Origin: Escherichia coli
GTDB taxonomy: Bacteria; Pseudomonadota; Gammaproteobacteria; Enterobacterales; Enterobacteriaceae
Length of the DNA: 64,000 nt
Assembly: GCF_024298765.1 (NCBI RefSeq)
Contig: NZ_CP101210.1
Direction: 5' to 3' (one strand)
Shown: positions 13,300-49,639 of the stretch, one piece after another
Layout: each line of letters starts with the position of its first letter
Numbering within the stretch: position 1 is the stretch's first letter
Position numbers and translations under genes: made by a program
Notes under the pieces: model-generated
What the model was told of the DNA's origin: nothing
The model's input: only the letters and a program-made list of their open reading frames with translations
Databases searched by the model: none

Positions 13300-15723
13300 T
13301 TAAACCTTTTCGATCTGGACAAGATTGCTGTGCGACGGGTTTCCCTTTGCCAGCGGTGAAGGGCGGTGAGAGGTCAGAATATTGATACTGCCGCCGTGAT
13401 CGACCCGGTCACCAAACATATCCGCTTTAAGCCACGCACCTTGCCCGATGGCGGTAACGCCAGGCAGAATACGCGGAGTCACTTTTGCGGCAATCAGCAT
13501 TTCTCCATTATTGTTAAATACCCGCACGGTATCGCCATGACGGATACCGCGTGCCTGAGCATCAATAGGGTTGATCCACACCTCTTGTGGGCAGGCCTGC
13601 TGTAACACATCAATATTGCCGTAGCTGGAGTGGGTACGCGCTTTGTAGTGGAAGCCCGTTAGCTGCAGTGGATAGGTTTTCCGCAGGGGATCGTCCCAGC
13701 CATCAAAACCTGGGGTATACGCAGGAAGGGGATGAATAATTTCATCTTTTTTCAATTCCCAGGTATCCGCAATCGTCGCCAGTCGTTCAGAATAAATTTC
13801 GATTTTCCCCGAAGGTGTTTTCAACGGGTTTGCCTGTGGATCTTCACGGAATGCGCGGAAAGCGACGTAGTGTTCTTCAGGGCATTTTTTCTTAAAGATC
13901 CCGGTCGTTTTCATCTCCTCGTAGTCGGGCATCTCAGGGTTACGTTCCTTCGTTTTCGCATGGAGATATTTGATCCATTCGTGCTGACTGCGGCCTTCAG
14001 TAAAGGTTTGATAAACGTCTGGTCCTAAGCGTTTGGCAACTTCGCTCAGCATCCAGTAGATGGGTTTGCGTTCAAATTTTGCTGAGGTTGCGGGTTGGGC
14101 GAGGATCACATAGCCCATATTCCCGGCAGATTCATGAGAGATAAGGTCTTCTTGCTCTGTTGGCATCAGGTCGGGCAACAGGATATCGCAATACTTAGCC
14201 GAGGCAGTAATGAAGTGGTCAATGCCAACAATCATCTCGCACTTGCTGTCATCCTGAAGCACCTCATGGGTGTGATTGATGTCGCCATGTTGATTGATCA
14301 ATGTGTTACTGGCGTAGCACCATAAAAACTTGATGGGGACATCCAGTTTTTCTTTTCCACGAACACCATCACGGGTCGCGGTCATTTCCGTACCGTGGTC
14401 GATGGCATCTGTCCATGTAAAGACGGAAATCTGCGTTTTAACAGGATTCTCAAGCATCGGGAACCATTCTACCCCCAGATCCCAGCTACCTTCGCGTACA
14501 CCTGAGTTGCCGCCGTTTATGCCGACGTTACCGGTGAGAACGGAAAGCATGGCAATAGCGCGGGACGTTTGTTCGCCGTTGGAGTGTCGTTGTGGCCCCC
14601 AACCCTGACAAATATAAGCAGGTTTTGCTGAACCGATCTCTCGTGCCAACTGGATAATTTTTTCTGCCGGTATGCTGGTGATTTTTGCTGCCCATTCCGG
14701 CGTTTTAGCTATGCCGTCAGGCCCTTCGCCCAGAATATAGGCTTTATAATGCGCGTTACGTGGTGCGTTGGCGGGCAGCGTTTTTTCATCGTAACCAACA
14801 CAATATTTGTCGAGAAATGGCTGATCGACCATGTTTTCAGTAATCAGTACCCAGGCAATCGCACAGGCCAGTGCTCCATCGGTGCCAGGGCGAATGGGCA
14901 GCCATTCATCTTCACGTCCGGCAGCTGTGTCGTTATAACGTGGATCGATGACGATCATGCGTGCATTTGAACGTTCGCGGGCTTGCTCGACGTAGTAAGT
15001 GACACCACCGCCGCTCATCCGCGTTTCTGCCGGGTTATTTCCGAACATAACGACCAGTTTCGTATTGGCGATATCATCCGGGCTGTTGCCATCATTGGCA
15101 CCGAACATATAACTCATTGCGGCACTGATTTGAGCGGTACTGTAGCTGCCATAGCGACTGAGAAAACCACCGCAAGAGTTCATCAGACGGTACGGGACGT
15201 TCGAGTTGGTGATGTTTCCGCCATCTACGCCTGTTCCGTACAGGACATGTACAGCCTCATTGCCGTATTCTTTCAGGATCCGCCGAAGATTATCACTGAT
15301 GATATCCAGGGCTTCATCCCAACTTATCCGTTCAAATTTACCTTCACCGCGCTTGCCGACACGCTTCATGGGATATTTCAACCTATCAGGATGATTCATC
15401 CGTCGGCGGATAGAGCGCCCGCGTAAACACGCTCGAACCTGATGATTACCGTAGACGTCGTCACCTGTCGTATCAGACTCCACCCAGTACACGGTGTCAT
15501 CTTTCACATGCAAACGTAACAGACAGCGGCTCCCGCAGTTAACGGTGCAGGAACTCCAGACCGCTTTCTCTTCTACCGGTGCCTCTGCCGCTCGGACCAT
15601 TTGGGAAAATGGCAGAGTGAAAGCACTGCTTGCCAGCGCGAGACTGCCAAGTGCGGAGGTTTTCATCAGACTTCTACGGCTGATTTCAGCCTTCATGAGC
15701 GCCTCTGTGGTATGGATTTTCAT
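13300..15723 (-). CDS. ynfF: Molybdopterin oxidoreductase catalytic subunit, DmsA paralogue (807 aa)
   Basis: Twin-arginine signal (SRRSLMKTSALG) and Cys-cluster CTVNCGSRC; tandem paralogue of ynfE. Confidence 0.9.
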   Translation of the reverse strand: MKIHTTEALMKAEISRRSLMKTSALGSLALASSAFTLPFSQMVRAAEAPVEEKAVWSSCTVNCGSRCLLRLHVKDDTVYWVESDTTGDDVYGNHQVRACLRGRSIRRRMNHPDRLKYPMKRVGKRGEGKFERISWDEALDIISDNLRRILKEYGNEAVHVLYGTGVDGGNITNSNVPYRLMNSCGGFLSRYGSYSTAQISAAMSYMFGANDGNSPDDIANTKLVVMFGNNPAETRMSGGGVTYYVEQARERSNARMIVIDPRYNDTAAGREDEWLPIRPGTDGALACAIAWVLITENMVDQPFLDKYCVGYDEKTLPANAPRNAHYKAYILGEGPDGIAKTPEWAAKITSIPAEKIIQLAREIGSAKPAYICQGWGPQRHSNGEQTSRAIAMLSVLTGNVGINGGNSGVREGSWDLGVEWFPMLENPVKTQISVFTWTDAIDHGTEMTATRDGVRGKEKLDVPIKFLWCYASNTLINQHGDINHTHEVLQDDSKCEMIVGIDHFITASAKYCDILLPDLMPTEQEDLISHESAGNMGYVILAQPATSAKFERKPIYWMLSEVAKRLGPDVYQTFTEGRSQHEWIKYLHAKTKERNPEMPDYEEMKTTGIFKKKCPEEHYVAFRAFREDPQANPLKTPSGKIEIYSERLATIADTWELKKDEIIHPLPAYTPGFDGWDDPLRKTYPLQLTGFHYKARTHSSYGNIDVLQQACPQEVWINPIDAQARGIRHGDTVRVFNNNGEMLIAAKVTPRILPGVTAIGQGAWLKADMFGDRVDHGGSINILTSHRPSPLAKGNPSHSNLVQIEKV

Positions 15724-15783
15724 CATTACTCACTTATTGCTTTTCAAACAAAATGTCATGCCAGAATTTATGGTTGTAGTGGG

Positions 15784-18210
15784 TTATATTTTTTCGATCT
15801 CGACCAGATTAGTGTGCTGCGGGTTTCCCTTCGCCAGTGGTGAAGGGCGCAGAGTGGTTAGCGTATTCACACAGCCGCCATGGTCGATTTTATCGCCAGA
15901 CATATTGGCCTCGTGCCAGGCTCCCTGGCCCATAGCGCTAACCCCAGGGAGAATGCGTGGTGTCACTTTGGCTGGTAGCCGAACTTCGCCACGATGGTTA
16001 TACACCCGCACCATATCGCCGTTGGCAATCCCACGTTTCTGTGCGTCAATAGGGTTGATCCACACCTCCTGACGGCAGGCAGCCTTCAGGACATCAATGT
16101 TGCCGTAGGTCGAGTGAGTACGGGATTTGTAATGGAAACCAAACAGTTGCAGTGGAAAAGTACTACGTTCAGGGGAGTCCCAGCCTTCAAAGGTTGAGGC
16201 ATAAACCGGCAGTGGGCTTATCACTTCATCTTTTTCCAGTTCCCAGGTACGGGCAATTTCCGCCAGCTTGCTGGAATAAATTTCAATCTTACCGGAAGGC
16301 GTTTTAAGTGGATTTGCCTCGGGGTCGTCACGAAATGCTTTGTAGGCGACAAAATGACCATTGGGATCTTTACGCTTATAGATACCCATTTTTTTCAGTT
16401 CGTCGTAAGACGGTAACGCCGGATCTTTGGCAAGCATTTTGGCGTACAGATGTTGTAACCATTGTTCCTGCGTGCGACCTTCTGTGAACTTTTGATAGAC
16501 GTCAGGTCCAAGACGTTTCGCGACCTCACTCAGGATCCAGTAAATCGGTTTGCGTTCGAATTTTTCGCTGGTGACTGGCTGAAGGAAAATGAGATATCCC
16601 ATGTTACCGGCGTAGTCGTTAGGAATAATATCTTCCTGCTCAACGGTCATCAGGTCTGGCAGCAGAATGTCGGCATATTTTGCCGATGAGGTCATAAAGT
16701 TTTCGATGACCACAATCATTTCGCATTTCGATTCGTCCTGCAGAATTTCATGCGTTTTGTTGATGTCAGAATGCTGATTAACCAGGGTATTTCCCGCGTA
16801 GTTCCAGATGAACTTAATGGGCACATCCAGTTTATCTTTGCCCCGGACGCCGTCGCGGATTGCCGTCATTTGCGGGCCATGATCGATAGCATCCGTCCAG
16901 CTGAAGCAGGAGATTGACGTTTTGACCGGATTATCCAGCACCGGCAGGCGTTCTATGGTAATGGTATAGGTCGATTCACGCGCGCCACTATTCCCGCCGC
17001 TGATGCCGACATTGCCCGTCAGAATAGGCAACATCGCAATAGCGCGTGCAGTCAGCTCGCCGTTTGCCTGGCGTTGCGGTCCCCAGCCCTGGCAGATATA
17101 AGCGGGTTTTGCTGTGCCAATTTCACGCGCCAGTTTGATGATACGGTCCACCGGGATACCGGTAATTTGCGAAGCCCACTGCGGCGTTTTCGCTGTTTTG
17201 TCGTCTCCTTCACCAAGAATATAGGCTTTATAGTGACCATTTTTTGGTGCATCTGCGGGTAAGGTTTTTTCGTCATAGCCGACGCAGTATTTATCGAGAA
17301 AAGGTTGATCAACGAGATTTTCGTTAATCAATACCCAGGCAATACCCGCAACCAGCGCGGCATCGGTGCCCGGGCGAATAGGAAGCCATTCGTCTTCACG
17401 ACCGGCAGCCGTATCGGTATATCGCGGATCGATAACAATCATTTTTGCGTTCGATTTCTCGCGCGCTTTTTCAAGAAGATAAGTGATGCCACCACCGCTC
17501 ATGCGGGTTTCTGCCGGGTTGTTACCAAACATCACGACCAGCTTGCTGTTTTCAATATCCGTTGTGCTGTTGCCATCATTACTGCCGTAGGTGTAGGGCA
17601 TGGCACAGGAGATTTGCGCGGTGCTGTAGGAGCCATACTGGTTGAGTGAACCGCCGTAGCAGTTCATCAGGCGTTTGACCGCCGAGGCGGATGGCGAAGA
17701 GCGGGTCATATTGCCGCCAACAATCCCCGAAGAGTACTGAATATATACAGCCTCATTGCCATATTGTTCGACGGTTTTTTTCAGGCTACTGGCGATAGTA
17801 TCCAGGGCTTCATCCCAGCTAATCCGTTCGAATTTGCCTTCGCCGCGTTTGCCCACGCGTTTCATTGGGTAATTCAAGCGGTCGGGATGATTAATACGCC
17901 GACGGATGGAGCGACCGCGCAAACAGGCGCGTACTTGATGATTGCCATACTCATCGCTGCCGGTGTTGTCAGTTTCCACCCAGGTCACTTCATTATCTTT
18001 AACATGTAGACGAAGTGCACAGCGGCTACCACAGTTGACGGAACAGGCACCCCAGACCACTTTTTCGCTGGCTTGTTGTACCGCTGCCGCTGCACTGCGC
18101 AGGGTGAACGGTAAAGAAAAACCGCCTGCAGCCAGCGCCAGAGAACCTATCGCGGTAGATTTAACGAGTGTTCTGCGGCTGATGCCCACCATTTGTTCAT
18201 TTTTGGACAT
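15784..18210 (-). CDS. ynfE: Molybdopterin oxidoreductase catalytic subunit, DmsA paralogue (808 aa)
   Basis: Twin-arginine signal (SRRTLVKSTAIG) and CSVNCGSRC; highly similar to ynfF along its whole length. Confidence 0.9.
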   Translation of the reverse strand: MSKNEQMVGISRRTLVKSTAIGSLALAAGGFSLPFTLRSAAAAVQQASEKVVWGACSVNCGSRCALRLHVKDNEVTWVETDNTGSDEYGNHQVRACLRGRSIRRRINHPDRLNYPMKRVGKRGEGKFERISWDEALDTIASSLKKTVEQYGNEAVYIQYSSGIVGGNMTRSSPSASAVKRLMNCYGGSLNQYGSYSTAQISCAMPYTYGSNDGNSTTDIENSKLVVMFGNNPAETRMSGGGITYLLEKAREKSNAKMIVIDPRYTDTAAGREDEWLPIRPGTDAALVAGIAWVLINENLVDQPFLDKYCVGYDEKTLPADAPKNGHYKAYILGEGDDKTAKTPQWASQITGIPVDRIIKLAREIGTAKPAYICQGWGPQRQANGELTARAIAMLPILTGNVGISGGNSGARESTYTITIERLPVLDNPVKTSISCFSWTDAIDHGPQMTAIRDGVRGKDKLDVPIKFIWNYAGNTLVNQHSDINKTHEILQDESKCEMIVVIENFMTSSAKYADILLPDLMTVEQEDIIPNDYAGNMGYLIFLQPVTSEKFERKPIYWILSEVAKRLGPDVYQKFTEGRTQEQWLQHLYAKMLAKDPALPSYDELKKMGIYKRKDPNGHFVAYKAFRDDPEANPLKTPSGKIEIYSSKLAEIARTWELEKDEVISPLPVYASTFEGWDSPERSTFPLQLFGFHYKSRTHSTYGNIDVLKAACRQEVWINPIDAQKRGIANGDMVRVYNHRGEVRLPAKVTPRILPGVSAMGQGAWHEANMSGDKIDHGGCVNTLTTLRPSPLAKGNPQHTNLVEIEKI

Positions 18211-42800: not shown

Positions 42801-43159
42801 GCACCATAACTGCTAATCATTCAAACTATTTAACCTGTGACAGAGTCAATGTCGCATTCTGTCACTGTCAGGCTAATACAGAGCTGCAATTCAACTACTG
42901 CAATGTCCTCGTAATTAGGTGAATTTACATATCGTCCTGTTCGGATGCCGGCTGCATTGCTGAAGATGAGGCATTTATGGTTCGCATATTTTCCCCTCAT
43001 GCTCGTCAGTCCTGTGCGTAGGAAGAAACAGGACACTCACACTAATTTGTGTGGGCATGCTGTGATGTCCTTCTGAATTATTCCTATGCCATTATGTAAA
43101 GCGCTGTATCAGATGCTCGTCACGGCTGTCAGGCTGTCGGGTCCTCCCGGTGGGGGCCC

Positions 43160-43200
43160 CTGCCACGGGGCGGGAGCGTCGCGGAAAAAGGCTAGTTTTT
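43160..43200. other. Putative cos site (cosN-cosB-like) upstream of terminase
   Basis: ACGGGGCGGGAGCGTCGCGG followed by an A/T-rich tract resembles the lambda cos junction (ACGGGGCGGCGACCTCGCGG), about 170 bp before the small terminase. Confidence 0.5.
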
Positions 43201-43353
43201 GAAATTTCATTCGTCATCACCACTACTGTAATAGATTGATATTACAGTGTTTTTATTTTTGTGGTGTCGATTTTGATTGTTTTTTGTTCATCACTAACAC
43301 CGTTTGCCTAAAGTTGTTCGCAAGATGCATGTTTAAAACATTCTGGAGCGGGT

Positions 43354-43848
43354 ATGGATCGAGAGTTAAAAAATCTGACGCTGAATATCAGTCAACTGGC
43401 GGCACTGTCAGGTGTACATCGCCAGACTGCTGCGGCAAGGCTGCAAAATCTACCCGTTGCAGGGGGGCATGAAAGCAACCTCAAGCTTTATCGGGTGGTT
43501 GATATTGTGTCGGCATTTCTGGCATTACCACCGCCGGTTGCAGAAAGCGAAATGGATGCGCATGAGCGCAAAGCCTGGTATCAGTCTGAACGTGAGCGTC
43601 TTAAGTTCGAACAGGAAACGGCACAACTCATTCCGGCCAGTGATGTCAGACGGGAGTTTGCCATCTGGGCAAAAGCGGTCGTGCAGGTGCTGGAGACATT
43701 ACCGGATATTCTTGAACGTGACTGCGGTCTGCAGCCTGCCGCTGTGAGCCGTGTTCAGTCCATTATTGATGATCTGCGCGATCAGATAGCCCTGCGGGTG
43801 ACTGAAGCAGGTGCGGATGATGAGGAGGAATTACAGCAGGAGGAGTAA
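43354..43848 (+). CDS. Terminase small subunit (Nu1-like, 164 aa)
   Basis: N-terminal HTH (LTLNISQLAALSGVHRQTAAARLQ), acidic C-terminus, overlaps the large-terminase start. Confidence 0.8.
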   Translation: MDRELKNLTLNISQLAALSGVHRQTAAARLQNLPVAGGHESNLKLYRVVDIVSAFLALPPPVAESEMDAHERKAWYQSERERLKFEQETAQLIPASDVRREFAIWAKAVVQVLETLPDILERDCGLQPAAVSRVQSIIDDLRDQIALRVTEAGADDEEELQQEE

Positions 43849-45950
43849 TGCTGAATCAGGAAACCGCAAAGGCAGCACGAACCGATTCAGGTTATATCCT
43901 TCGCGCACCGAGACGAATGCGGGTTGCTGATGCCGTTGCTCAGTATATGCGGGTGCCCCTGGGGGCAGGGAACTCAGTCCCGTGGGATCCGCTGGTGGCA
44001 CCGTATGTTATTGAGCCGATGAACTGCCTGGCCTCGCGTGAATACGACGCAGTGATATTTGTTGGCCCGGCACGAACCGGCAAGACTATCGGCCTGATTG
44101 ACGGCTGGGTGATTTACAACGTGATTTGCGATCCTGCTGATATGCTGATCATTCAGATGACGGAGGAAAAAGCCCGCGAACACTCCAAAAAACGACTCGC
44201 CAGAACGTTTCGCGTCAGCCCGGAAGTGGTCAGTCGCCTGAGTCCGAACAAAAATGACAACAACGTTTATGACAGAACATTCCTTGCTGGTAACTACCTG
44301 AAAATCGGCTGGCCGTCAGTCAATATCATGTCCTCATCAGATTATAAATGCGTCGCGCTGACGGATTATGACCGTTTTCCGGAAGATATTGATGGCGAGG
44401 GGGATGCTTTCTCTCTTGCCTCAAAACGTACCACAACATTTATGTCCAGTGGTATGACGCTGGTGGAGAGTTCCCCCGGCAGGGATGTGAAGGATGTGAA
44501 ATGGCGACGGACTTCACCGCATGAGGCTCCACCAACCACGGGGATACTGTCGCTCTATAACCGTGGTGATCGCCGTCGCTGGTACTGGCCCTGTCCATAC
44601 TGTGGTGAGTATTTTCAGCCCTGCGGCGATGTGGTTGCTGGTTTCCGTGATATTGCCGATCCCGTGCTGGCAAGTGAGGCGGCTTATATTCAGTGTCCTT
44701 CCTGTTCAGGACGGATTATGCCTGAACAAAAACGTGAGCTGAACGGACGTGGGGTCTGGTTGCGGGATGGTGAATCCATCAATGCGGATGGCAGTCGTTA
44801 TGGTGATCCCCGACGCTCACGTATTGCGTCATTCTGGATGGAGGGGCCGGCAGCTGCTTACCAGACACTCTCGCAACTCGTTTACAAACTGCTTACTGCA
44901 GAACAGGAATACGAGACAACCGGAAGTGAAGAAACACTCAAGACGGTTATCAATACCGACTGGGGATTACCTTATCTTCCCCGCGCCAGCATGGAGCAAC
45001 GAAAAAGTGAACTGCTTGAGCAGCGGGCAGAGCCAGTTCCTTCCCGCAGTGTGCCGGATGGCGTTAATTTCCTTGTGGCGACAGTGGATGTGCAGGCGGG
45101 ACGTCATCGCCGTTTTGTGGTTCAGGTAACGGGCTATGGCAGCCGTGGCGAACGCTGGATTATTGATCGTTACAACATCACGCAGTCATTGCGCGGTGAC
45201 AGCGACGGGGAGAGCCAGCGAATTGATCCGGCCAGCTATCCGGAAGACTGGGATGTCCTGCTGACGGATGTTTTTCATAAAAGCTGGCCGCTGGCCTCCG
45301 ATCCTTCTCAACAAATGCGACTGATGGCAATGGCGGTGGACTCCGGCGGTGAAGACGGGGTCACTGATAATGCCTATAAATTCTGGCGTCGTTGCCGTCG
45401 TGATGGCCTTGGTAAACGTATTTACCTGTTTAAGGGCGACAGCATCCGGCGCGCAAAACTGATCACCCGTACATTCCCTGATAACACCGGACGAACGGGC
45501 CGACGGGCGCAGGCCGCAGGTGATGTGCCGCTCTGGCTTCTTCAGACGGATGCACTGAAAGACCGGGTGAATAACGCGTTATGGCGTGACTCGCCAGGTC
45601 CCGGCTATGTGCATTTCCCTGACTGGCTGGGGAGCTGGTTTTACGACGAACTGACGTATGAAGAGCGGAGCAGTGACGGGAAATGGAGTAAGCCAGGTCG
45701 CGGTGCCAACGAAGCTTTTGACCTGATGGTGTATGCCGAGGCTCTGGTCATTCTGCATGGATACGAAAAGATCCGCTGGCCGGATGCACCGGAGTGGGCG
45801 AGCCGGGAAACCTGGCTGGAGTGTGTCCCGGACAGTACCGAACCGTCACCCACACCGGAACCGGTATCCACGCCTGTTAAAAAACAAAAACGGAAGAAAA
45901 CAGTAACTGACGATGTTAACCCCTGGCTGACTTCCGGAGGATGGTTATGA
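43848..45950 (+). CDS. Terminase large subunit (gpA-like, 700 aa)
   Basis: Walker A-like VGPARTGKT; size and position after Nu1. Confidence 0.9.
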   Translation: MLNQETAKAARTDSGYILRAPRRMRVADAVAQYMRVPLGAGNSVPWDPLVAPYVIEPMNCLASREYDAVIFVGPARTGKTIGLIDGWVIYNVICDPADMLIIQMTEEKAREHSKKRLARTFRVSPEVVSRLSPNKNDNNVYDRTFLAGNYLKIGWPSVNIMSSSDYKCVALTDYDRFPEDIDGEGDAFSLASKRTTTFMSSGMTLVESSPGRDVKDVKWRRTSPHEAPPTTGILSLYNRGDRRRWYWPCPYCGEYFQPCGDVVAGFRDIADPVLASEAAYIQCPSCSGRIMPEQKRELNGRGVWLRDGESINADGSRYGDPRRSRIASFWMEGPAAAYQTLSQLVYKLLTAEQEYETTGSEETLKTVINTDWGLPYLPRASMEQRKSELLEQRAEPVPSRSVPDGVNFLVATVDVQAGRHRRFVVQVTGYGSRGERWIIDRYNITQSLRGDSDGESQRIDPASYPEDWDVLLTDVFHKSWPLASDPSQQMRLMAMAVDSGGEDGVTDNAYKFWRRCRRDGLGKRIYLFKGDSIRRAKLITRTFPDNTGRTGRRAQAAGDVPLWLLQTDALKDRVNNALWRDSPGPGYVHFPDWLGSWFYDELTYEERSSDGKWSKPGRGANEAFDLMVYAEALVILHGYEKIRWPDAPEWASRETWLECVPDSTEPSPTPEPVSTPVKKQKRKKTVTDDVNPWLTSGGWL

Positions 45951-47680: not shown

Positions 47681-49639
47681 ATGCAGGCTGGTCACCAGAG
47701 TGACGCGGATATTTATATTTATGACGAGATTGGTTTCTGGGGTGTTACAGCGAAGCAGTTTATCAGTGATCTGAATGCACTGGGCGATATCACCCACATT
47801 AATCTCCATATTAATTCACCGGGTGGCGATGTCTTTGAAGGCATCGCCATTTTTAATGCGCTGAAAACACATGGAGCGTCCATTACCGTTTATGTCGACG
47901 GTGTGGCGGCGTCAATGGCGTCGGTCATTGCGATGGTGGGAAACCCGGTCATTATGCCGGAAAACACTTTCATGATGATTCATAAACCATTTGGCTTTAC
48001 GGGCGGTGATGCGGAGGACATGCGCACCTATGCCGACCTGCTCGATAAAGTTGAGGCGGTTCTGTTACCCGCTTATGCACAGAAAACCGGGAAAACCACC
48101 GATGAAATTGCTGCCATGCTGGCGGATGAGACCTGGATGTCCGGTGCCGAATGTCTGGCACATGGATTTGCTGATCAGGTAACGCCAGCCGTTAAGGCAA
48201 TGGCATGTATTCAGTCAAAACGTACAGAGGAATTTAAAAAGATGCCGGAATCCATTCGAAACATGATTACTCCGCCACGCAACAGTGCTCCACGCGTACA
48301 GGATGATGAACCTGCAGCCTCCCGGACGCCAGTGCAGGCAGCAGCACCCGTGGTGGATGAAAACAGTATCCGTGCGCAGGTACTGGCAGAGCAAAAAGCG
48401 CGTGTAAACGGTATTAATGATCTGTTTGCCATGTTTGGCGGGCGTTATCAGACGCTGCAGGCTCAGTGTCTTGCCGATCCTGAATGTTCGCTGGAGCAGG
48501 CCCGCGAAAAGCTGTTGAACGAGATGGGGCGCGAGTCCACGCCATCCAATAAAAATACCCCGGCTCATATTTATGCCGGTAACGGTAATTTTGTGGGGGA
48601 CGGGATCCGCCAGGCGCTGATGGCGCGTGCCGGATTTGAAAAAACCGAACGTGATAATGTCTACAACGGGATGACCCTGCGTGAATATGCCCGTATGTCA
48701 CTGACTGAACGGGGTATTGGGGTTTCCAGTTATAACCCGATGCAGATGGTCGGTGCGGCGTTCACACACAGTACGTCTGACTTCGGTAATATTCTGCTGG
48801 ATGTTGCGAACAAAGCCATTCTGCAGGGCTGGGAAGATGCTCCTGAAACCTATGAACAGTGGACGCGGAAAGGTCAGTTGTCTGATTTTAAAATTGCCCA
48901 TCGTGTGGGTATGGGGGGCTTCAGTGCTCTGCGTCAGGTGCGTGAAGGGGCGGAATATAAATACGTCACCACCGGAGATAAACAGGCCACTATTGCACTG
49001 GCGACCTATGGCGAGCTGTTCAGTATCACCCGTCAGGCCATTATCAATGATGATCTGAATATGCTGACCGATGTCCCGATGAAGCTGGGCCGTGCGGCGA
49101 AATCCACCATTGCCGATCTGGTTTATGCCATTCTGACGTCTAACCCGAAAATCTCCACAGATAATGTAAGTCTGTTCGATAAAGCGAAACATGCAAACGT
49201 ACTGGAGAGCGCTGCAATGGACGTGGCATCGCTGGATAAAGCCCGCCAGTTGATGCGCGTTCAGAAAGAGGGGGAGCGTCATCTGAATATTCGTCCTGCG
49301 TTCGTACTGGTACCGACGGCGATGGAGTCTGTTGCTAACCAGGTCATTCGCTCCTCAAGTGTCAAGGGGGCTGACATTAACGCCGGTATTATTAACCCGG
49401 TGAAAGATTTTGCGACCGTTATTGCAGAGCCTCGTCTTGATGATAACAGCCAGACCACCTTCTACCTGGCTGCGTCCAAAGGCTCCGATACGATTGAAGT
49501 GGCTTATCTCAACGGTGTGGATACGCCATATATTGATCAGATGGAGGGCTTCAGTGTGGATGGCGTGACAACGAAAGTGCGTATTGACGCCGGTGTCGCG
49601 CCAGTTGATCACCGCGGTCTGGTGAAATGTACGGCGTAA
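47681..49639 (+). CDS. Fused prohead protease (ClpP/S49-like) and HK97-fold major capsid protein (652 aa)
   Basis: N-terminal third has ClpP-like features (INSPGGDVFEGIAIFNAL, MASVIAMVGNP); C-terminal two-thirds resembles a major capsid protein. Confidence 0.78.
   Translation: MQAGHQSDADIYIYDEIGFWGVTAKQFISDLNALGDITHINLHINSPGGDVFEGIAIFNALKTHGASITVYVDGVAASMASVIAMVGNPVIMPENTFMMIHKPFGFTGGDAEDMRTYADLLDKVEAVLLPAYAQKTGKTTDEIAAMLADETWMSGAECLAHGFADQVTPAVKAMACIQSKRTEEFKKMPESIRNMITPPRNSAPRVQDDEPAASRTPVQAAAPVVDENSIRAQVLAEQKARVNGINDLFAMFGGRYQTLQAQCLADPECSLEQAREKLLNEMGRESTPSNKNTPAHIYAGNGNFVGDGIRQALMARAGFEKTERDNVYNGMTLREYARMSLTERGIGVSSYNPMQMVGAAFTHSTSDFGNILLDVANKAILQGWEDAPETYEQWTRKGQLSDFKIAHRVGMGGFSALRQVREGAEYKYVTTGDKQATIALATYGELFSITRQAIINDDLNMLTDVPMKLGRAAKSTIADLVYAILTSNPKISTDNVSLFDKAKHANVLESAAMDVASLDKARQLMRVQKEGERHLNIRPAFVLVPTAMESVANQVIRSSSVKGADINAGIINPVKDFATVIAEPRLDDNSQTTFYLAASKGSDTIEVAYLNGVDTPYIDQMEGFSVDGVTTKVRIDAGVAPVDHRGLVKCTA

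Follow-up and report, generated by a model that had tools for sequence, protein, structure and literature searches.

The locus lies in a 64,000-nucleotide stretch of DNA from Escherichia coli strain 104 (hereafter, the window), in which a gene pair for the small and large terminase subunits, terS and terL, is preceded by a candidate cos region within a prophage at the Qin locus. The stop of terS and the start of terL overlap at 43848. Upstream of terS, the subsites of a lambda-type cos can be laid out from cosQ to the putative small-terminase (TerS) binding sites of cosB. The features are listed below; offsets are counted from the first base of the predicted cohesive end, that is, from the predicted top-strand nick, and slashes mark predicted nicks.

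43139–43145, plus strand: cosQ-like GGGTCCT; offset −28 to −22, ending 22 nt before the predicted top-strand nick.
43166–43181, no strand assigned: putative cosN nicking site CG/GGGCGGGAGCGT/CG; offset −1 to +14; the CG flanks and the left half, GGGCGG, are those of lambda.
43168–43179, plus strand: predicted 12-nt 5′ cohesive end GGGCGGGAGCGT; the records of phages cdtI and Tritos start exactly here.
43180–43200, plus strand: I2-like segment CGCGGAAAAAGGCTAGTTTTT; offset +13 to +33, between cosN and cosB.
43214–43221, plus strand: R3-like putative TerS-binding core TCATCACC (extended form, GTCATCACCAC); offset +47 to +54; pattern TCRWCACY.
43229–43241, minus strand: IHF consensus TATCAATCTATTA; offset +62 to +74, between R3 and R2 and equivalent to I1.
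43263–43270, minus strand: R2-like core TCGACACC, inverted relative to R3 and R1; offset +96 to +103; pattern TCRWCACY.
43288–43295, plus strand: R1-like core TCATCACT, within the block TGTTCATCAC; offset +121 to +128; pattern TCRWCACY.
43354–43848, plus strand: terS, 164 aa, DUF1441 type (Pfam PF07278, E = 2.7e-41); offset +187.
43848–45950, plus strand: terL, 700 aa, gpA family (Pfam GpA_ATPase, 1e-70; GpA_nuclease, 1e-85).

The junction itself is the 20-mer ACGGGGCGGGAGCGTCGCGG at 43165–43184, which is the same as the lambda junction ACGGGGCGGCGACCTCGCGG (NC_001416) at 16 of 20 positions; in that record, lambda begins with GGGCGGCGACCTCGCGGG on the left and closes with ...GGTTACG on the right. 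The frame shared with lambda, ACGGGGCGG-N5-TCGCGG, occurs once on the two strands of the 64 kb, against 0.01 expected from dinucleotide shuffles, and matching the lambda 20-mer to the window with up to four mismatches returned this single site (mean of 0.05 in 20 shuffles). The 116 bp downstream of the 20-mer (43185–43300) are 71% A+T, compared with 50% for the window, and exactly 170 bp separate the end of the 20-mer from the terS ATG at 43354. A preliminary description of this DNA had proposed a lambda-like cos junction within 43120–43260, an A/T-rich block after it and a distance of about 170 bp to the small-terminase gene, all of which our analysis bears out.

The same description had noted that the centre of the 12-nt end is unlike that of lambda, and here too we agree. 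The predicted cohesive end differs at bp 7, 8, 9 and 11 only (CG/GGGCGG GAGCGT/CG compared with CG/GGGCGG CGACCT/CG; GAGCG against CGACC at the centre). The left half (bp 1–6) and the nick-flanking CGs are kept and the variation is confined to bp 7–12, which is the pattern that marks a lambda-like cosN (PMC4669245). As a positive control, the same pattern search applied to Salmonella Gifsy-1 returned GGGCGGCAGCGT, with the departures from lambda at bp 8, 9 and 11 that have been reported for it (PMC4669245). Judged by this sequence, the nicks would fall at 43167/43168 on the top strand and at 43179/43180 on the bottom strand. The overall reading of a lambda-type cos with a variant cosN stands, given the starts of the cdtI and Tritos records, a TerL with gpA domains, and cosQ-, I2-, R- and IHF-like elements at lambda-like offsets.

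Upstream of cosN, GGGTCCT has an identical counterpart at lambda 48473–48479, which ends 23 nt upstream of the nick and which we take to be the lambda cosQ sequence. The heptamer is kept in cdtI, Tritos, phi458, PhiR40_1, CP-1639, mEp043, Kp4865-4, Stx2_95 and Gifsy-1, and a single site in the window matches the combined pattern GGGTCCT-N22-GGGCGG exactly. The 7-bp cosQ is strongly conserved (PMC4669245), and the copy at 43139–43145 is a probable packaging-termination signal. Directly to its left, at 43124–43139, lies an 8-bp tandem repeat (GGCTGTCA, GGCTGTCG), present in two copies here and in three in Tritos.

On the other side of cosN, the I2-like segment is identical in cdtI, Tritos, phi458 and PhiR40_1 and resembles lambda's CGCGGGTTTTCGCTATTTATGAAAA. 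Most of the family keeps the pattern CGCGGRAA..GGC..TTTTT, without its first 3 bp in CP-1639 and Stx2_95. In lambda, I2 is required for termination (PMC4669245). In the CP-1639 and Stx2_95 prophages, I2 lies 3 bp nearer the nick, and the distance to R3 is restored to within 1 bp.

The lambda cosB is laid out as R3-I1-R2-R1 with R2 inverted, R3 occupying bp 50–65 (PMC9026076, PMC4669245). The corresponding part of the window contains three TCRWCACY sites in direct, inverted and direct orientation within 82 bp. They form the only such cluster in the window, against a background of about one site per 3–4 kb, and the R3-like core sits at the position of lambda R3. The cores are short and were defined after inspection of the sequence, being found by family alignment and then run as a pattern. 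That alignment of 11 cos regions (the window, phi458, PhiR40_1, CP-1639, Stx2_95, Fels-1, Gifsy-2, Chris1, mEp043, Kp4865-4 and Flotzy) shows conserved blocks at each element position. A triplet-periodic CATCAT, CACCAC or GGCGGC stands at the R3 offset in most of the family; Gifsy-2 has GTCAGCAC. A homologous inverted R2 element, (G)ATGTCGA or GATGATG, is found in most aligned members, and TGTTC..CA in the R1 block is invariant in 11 family members. R1 and R2 make up an inverted pair, which is perfect in Gifsy-2 and PhiR40_1. A repeat finder picked up no direct repeats, since the R cores lack the length or the regularity that it needs.

The candidate IHF site is similarly well placed. The pattern WATCAANNNNTTR has six matches in the 64 kb, and that at 43229–43241 is the only one within 13 kb. 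The consensus recurs at the same offset in cdtI, phi458, CP-1639 and Chris1 and its TTGAT core is kept across most of the family; with the strict pattern, the consensus is absent from several family members and also from lambda itself. At the level of sequence, therefore, R-like sites at +47 (plus), +96 (minus) and +121 (plus), with IHF at +62 to +74, compose a complex cosB. The IHF consensus is also enclosed by a perfect 9-bp inverted repeat, ACTGTAATA-N6-TATTACAGT (43225–43248), that occurs only in the window and the phi458 lineage.

The preliminary description had called the small-terminase gene Nu1-like, a label that holds for some properties of TerS and fails for others. It holds for position and apparently for remote homology, as seen in PHROG profile matches that are reciprocal over the full length: TerS matches phrog_141 ('terminase small subunit') at 1e-73 and phrog_57, the family of lambda Nu1, at 4e-10, and lambda Nu1 in turn matches phrog_141 at 6e-8. 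It probably holds for the fold as well, weak though the structural link to Nu1 is. It is false for family membership: TerS is a DUF1441 protein that has no match above the gathering threshold to the Phage_Nu1 profile (PF07471), where lambda Nu1 itself scores 2.5e-100, and BLASTP of TerS against Nu1 is not significant (E = 0.27). An hhalign comparison of the TerS alignment with the single Nu1 sequence was uninformative (probability 6%), and a search of the PDB with the TerS sequence found nothing. Homologues in mEp460, phi458, Gifsy-2 and Fels-1 carry TerS annotation, and the profile match together with the adjoining gpA-type terL places the protein among the DUF1441-type small terminases (phrog_141; Gifsy-2, Fels-1, VT1-Sakai, mEp213 and cdtI).

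An AF2 model of TerS, of moderate quality (pLDDT 74.6, pTM 0.33), has a β-α-α-wing-β-α N terminus followed by long helices. The predicted N-terminal winged helix–turn–helix (HTH) has its recognition helix at about residues 23–30 and its wing at about residues 31–44. Foldseek of this model against the PDB gave no match at E ≤ 0.001 (best E = 0.045); the weak neighbours are MerR-type winged HTH proteins, RacA, BldC and 6HN7, the RppC–TerS lambda complex (E = 0.13). The model is consistent with a winged HTH, short of proof. In RefSeq/PGAP, the small terminase is labelled only 'DUF1441 family protein', in a region that more than 2,000 complete E. coli genomes contain. The records of PhiR40_1, mEp460 and 569R4 annotate across cos a 'hypothetical protein', whose ORF is probably spurious; its equivalent in the window is a 78-aa ORF (43236–43472).

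Directly downstream, TerL contains both gpA domains and aligns with lambda gpA over 623 aa at 24% identity (E = 3e-18); the prediction is that it cuts cosN with staggered nicks. After terS and terL come a small W-like ORF, a portal of the lambda family and a ClpP–capsid (protease–capsid) fusion. The prophage (approximately 23500–64000 of the window) sits at the Qin locus, with ydfT, cspB, essD, rrrQ, rzpQ, cspI and gnsB upstream of cos, and its head and tail genes appear complete; ynfE/ynfF-like ORFs of 808 aa lie at 13300–18210. The cos region of 241 bp is common in the species, with matches in 2,112 of 5,426 complete E. coli genomes and at least 80% of the region in 1,468 of them. Identical copies come mostly from avian or poultry isolates.

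Several phage records retrieved by megablast with the region start or end exactly at the site. Both cdtI (AB285204) and Tritos (OV696610, a linear record) begin GGGCGGGAGCGTCGCGGAAAAAGGCTAGTTTTT, that is, at GGGCGGGAGCGT; Tritos ends ...CCTGCCACG (...CCACG), the coordinates of cdtI finish likewise, and the lambda record has the same geometry. It may be that lambda served as the model for where the cdtI, Tritos and mEp460 records start. The two phages share with the window the families of TerL and TerS and a cosQ, cosN and I2 that are identical through +33, but diverge completely from +34, with a different cosB (GGCGGCGGC at the R3 position) and a TerS that is 42% identical.

The closest relatives are phi458 and vB_EcoS-569R4, which have essentially the cos of the window: cosN is identical, cosB and terS are 95–99% identical, and terL agrees in the part that was compared. 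For phi458, cosB and terS are about 98% identical to the window, whereas the sequence to the left of cosQ differs, indicating a mosaic joint; its records carry no cos annotation. In mEp460 and Ayreon, terS is approximately 99% identical to that of the window and, in mEp460, an 81-bp cos core is 94% identical, these being the only parts compared. The window is itself a mosaic, Tritos-like in its left arm up to +33 (96% over 268 nt) and phi458-like in its right arm from cosQ onwards (about 98%).

Lambda has the same order of subsites, cosQ-cosN-I2-cosB[R3-I1-R2-R1]-Nu1-A, with nearly equal spacing: the end lies 190 bp from the small-terminase ATG in lambda and 186 bp in the window, and cosQ lies 23 and 22 nt, respectively, from the nick. 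GGGTCCT, ACG/GGGCGG and T/CGCGG are identical, and the alignment from cosQ to I2 has 48 identities in 75 positions. The differences lie in the R repeats (CGTTTCC-type in lambda, TCRWCACY-type here), in the R2–R1 distance (about 48 bp against 25 bp), in the family of TerS (Phage_Nu1 against DUF1441), in TerL as described above, and in the head module, which in the window has a fused protease–capsid gene. Gifsy-1, whose cosN was described by the Feiss laboratory, departs from the window at bp 7 of cosN only (C rather than G) and is like it in cosQ and in having a complex cosB (PMC4669245, PMC9026076), but its Nu1, gpA and head genes are of the phage-21/lambda type, in contrast to the DUF1441 TerS and the Gifsy-2/mEp213-type head module of the window.

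The putative cos of mEp213, mEp043 and LLS, GGGCGGCGCGCT, goes with a TerS that is 57% identical to that of the window, the same type of TerL and the same cosQ/cosN/I2/R layout, but differs in cosN bp 7–11, in its CAT-type R cores and in a shorter cosB (129 bp to terS). The 12-nt 5′ end of mEp213 and LLS has been inferred in print by the same reasoning as is used here (Genome Res 2025, PMC12315714). For the cyanophage Cr-LKS3, 9-nt 5′ cohesive ends flanked by the same conserved bases were determined experimentally (PMC9303873), and its relative Cy-LDV1 carries a TerS of the family found in the window. The segment from cosN to I2 is 3 bp shorter in mEp460_4F5 (LR595868, positions 1–30; GGGCGGGAG-CGCGG) and in Flotzy (positions 322–340; GGGCGGCGC-CGCGG), which may reflect genuine 9-nt ends or assembly artefacts at virion termini. 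Strict cosN patterns failed on Chris1, Gifsy-2 and Flotzy, in which cosN is more divergent or 3 bp shorter.

Taken together, we consider it very likely that the site is the cos of an mEp460/phi458-type lambdoid prophage at the E. coli Qin locus and that it works as lambda's does. In such a mechanism, dimers of TerS would bind the R3-like and the inverted R2-like repeats across a bend induced by IHF, with R1 as an accessory TerS site. The bound TerS would position the gpA-type TerL, which would nick cosN at the two predicted positions, 12 bp apart, to leave 5′ overhangs reading GGGCGGGAGCGT. Once the motor meets the next cos on the concatemer, cosQ would signal termination together with cosN and I2.

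The preliminary description had gone further and read the altered centre of the cohesive end as implying a terminase specificity of its own. That the change from CGACC to GAGCG itself determines a distinct TerL specificity strikes us as quite improbable. A TerL that is only 24% identical to gpA might have co-adapted with its own cosN, and the rotational symmetry of cosN falls from 10 of 16 bp in lambda to 8 of 16 bp here. However, all four changes lie in bp 7–12, to which natural cosN variation in lambda-like phages is confined and where changes have no effect on nicking and are free of phenotype in lambda; G2C has a phenotype but its symmetric counterpart C11G has none, and it is the nick-flanking CG pairs and cosQ that are conserved (PMC4669245). 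The lambda and N15 terminases show no preference between their cosN sites and use either equally, and lambda and phage 21, with identical cosQ and cosN, nevertheless discriminate more than 1000-fold through TerS–cosB (PMC4669245). Within the TerS/TerL family of the window, bp 7–12 vary freely (GAGCGT, CGCGCT, CAGCGG and GCGGCG). Because the four differences fall in the tolerant half of cosN, and because cdtI and Tritos combine the same cosN with another cosB and TerS, the variant centre is no evidence of a distinct specificity. Packaging specificity in this phage is very probably non-lambda all the same, owing to cosB and TerS rather than to cosN; its most likely source is the combination of non-lambda cosB repeats and the DNA-binding domain of the DUF1441-type TerS. 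The altered centre may matter for annealing instead. Lambda/N15 ends with two mismatches lower viable yield about four-fold (PMC4669245), and since four of twelve positions differ here, the cohesive ends of this phage are likely to be unable to anneal with lambda-type ends.

The remaining alternatives accept or deny the cos in other ways. The site could be an intact-looking but inactive relic of a defective prophage, never cut in this host, which we regard as unlikely, although less so than any other alternative. The Qin-locus element in K-12 is defective, and many E. coli prophages are cryptic. Against this, the terS, terL, portal, protease–capsid fusion, tape-measure and J-like ORFs in the window are all full length, cosQ-cosN-I2 does not differ from the one in Tritos and cdtI, which are isolated phages, and cosB and terS are those of phi458 at about 98%; a superinfecting relative would be able to use the site as a substrate even if the prophage were non-inducible. 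A genuine cos with a stagger other than 12 nt, whether 9 nt or with displaced nicks, is very unlikely. Lambda-like phages with 7- to 9-nt ends do exist, Cr-LKS3 among them (PMC9303873), and the shorter cosN of mEp460_4F5 and Flotzy points the same way, but the spacing between the conserved CGs is exactly 12 in the window, as it is in lambda and Gifsy-1, and the records of Tritos and cdtI are laid out with 12-nt ends. Finally, only the shortness of the motif speaks for a chance likeness to lambda cos in a headful (pac) phage. This is effectively refuted by the 0.01–0.05 matches expected per window, by a flanking architecture that is kept in at least 10 phages, by the gpA-type (5′-cos) TerL and by linear records that terminate at the site. 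Headful packaging was also considered alongside HK97-type 3′-cos packaging, and both were rejected because TerL matches gpA (lambda-type) domains only and linear records end here.

The N-terminal domain of TerS covaries with the R core (CAC or CAT) in the pairs window/PhiR40_1, CP-1639/Stx2_95 and Gifsy-2/Fels-1, whose TerS C-terminal halves are related, near-identical in two pairs, and which are phylogenetically not fully independent. This covariation supports the R-like repeats as sites of TerS. In the wing motif (residues 38–46), SNLK occurs with CAC-ending R cores in the window, phi458, CP-1639 and Gifsy-2, and (S/E/D)-K/R-x-K occurs with CAT in PhiR40_1, Stx2_95, Fels-1, mEp043, Kp4865-4, Chris1 and Flotzy. 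It is a tentative and rather doubtful proposition that these observations reflect a previously undescribed recognition code of DUF1441 TerS, composed of TCRWCAY cores, a triplet-periodic R3 (CATCATCAT, CACCAC or GGCGGC) and a CAC/CAT ending that covaries with the wing (SNLK versus S/E-K-x-K).

Neither the kind of site nor its sequence is new, and the site is ordinary, because the same end sequence marks the termini of sequenced phages. As GGGCGGGAGCGT begins at base 1 of the cdtI record, which was deposited for the 2007 paper of Asakura et al., the sequence had already been recognized. A literature search for the exact GGGCGGGAGCGT found no text naming the end and matched only two unrelated human or rat papers, the cdtI paper (PNAS 2007) and Vahanian et al. 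2017 lying outside its scope, and no paper on Tritos was found. Variation of cosN in lambda-like phages has been surveyed by Vahanian et al. (2017, Virology 509:140), as cited in PMC12315714 and PMC9303873. What may be mildly new is confined to the putative cosB code of the DUF1441 TerS family and to the invariant cos core as a candidate module junction. The 61-bp cosQ-cosN-I2 segment is the only part common to the window, Tritos and phi458, and the cos core therefore looks like a patch of homology for recombination of late-region or head modules. Were the recognition code true, this invariant core would be the homology patch across which cosB–terS cassettes and late modules are exchanged among E. 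coli prophages.

For the prophage itself, the site confirms lambda-type 5′-cos packaging and a head module that is in place, and it gives the phage genome its zero coordinate. Transfer of the annotation could correct terS labels that read only DUF1441 in thousands of E. coli genomes, together with spurious ORFs that span cos. The mismatch between its ends and those of lambda bears on which prophages form viable hybrids or mobilize cos-bearing satellites.
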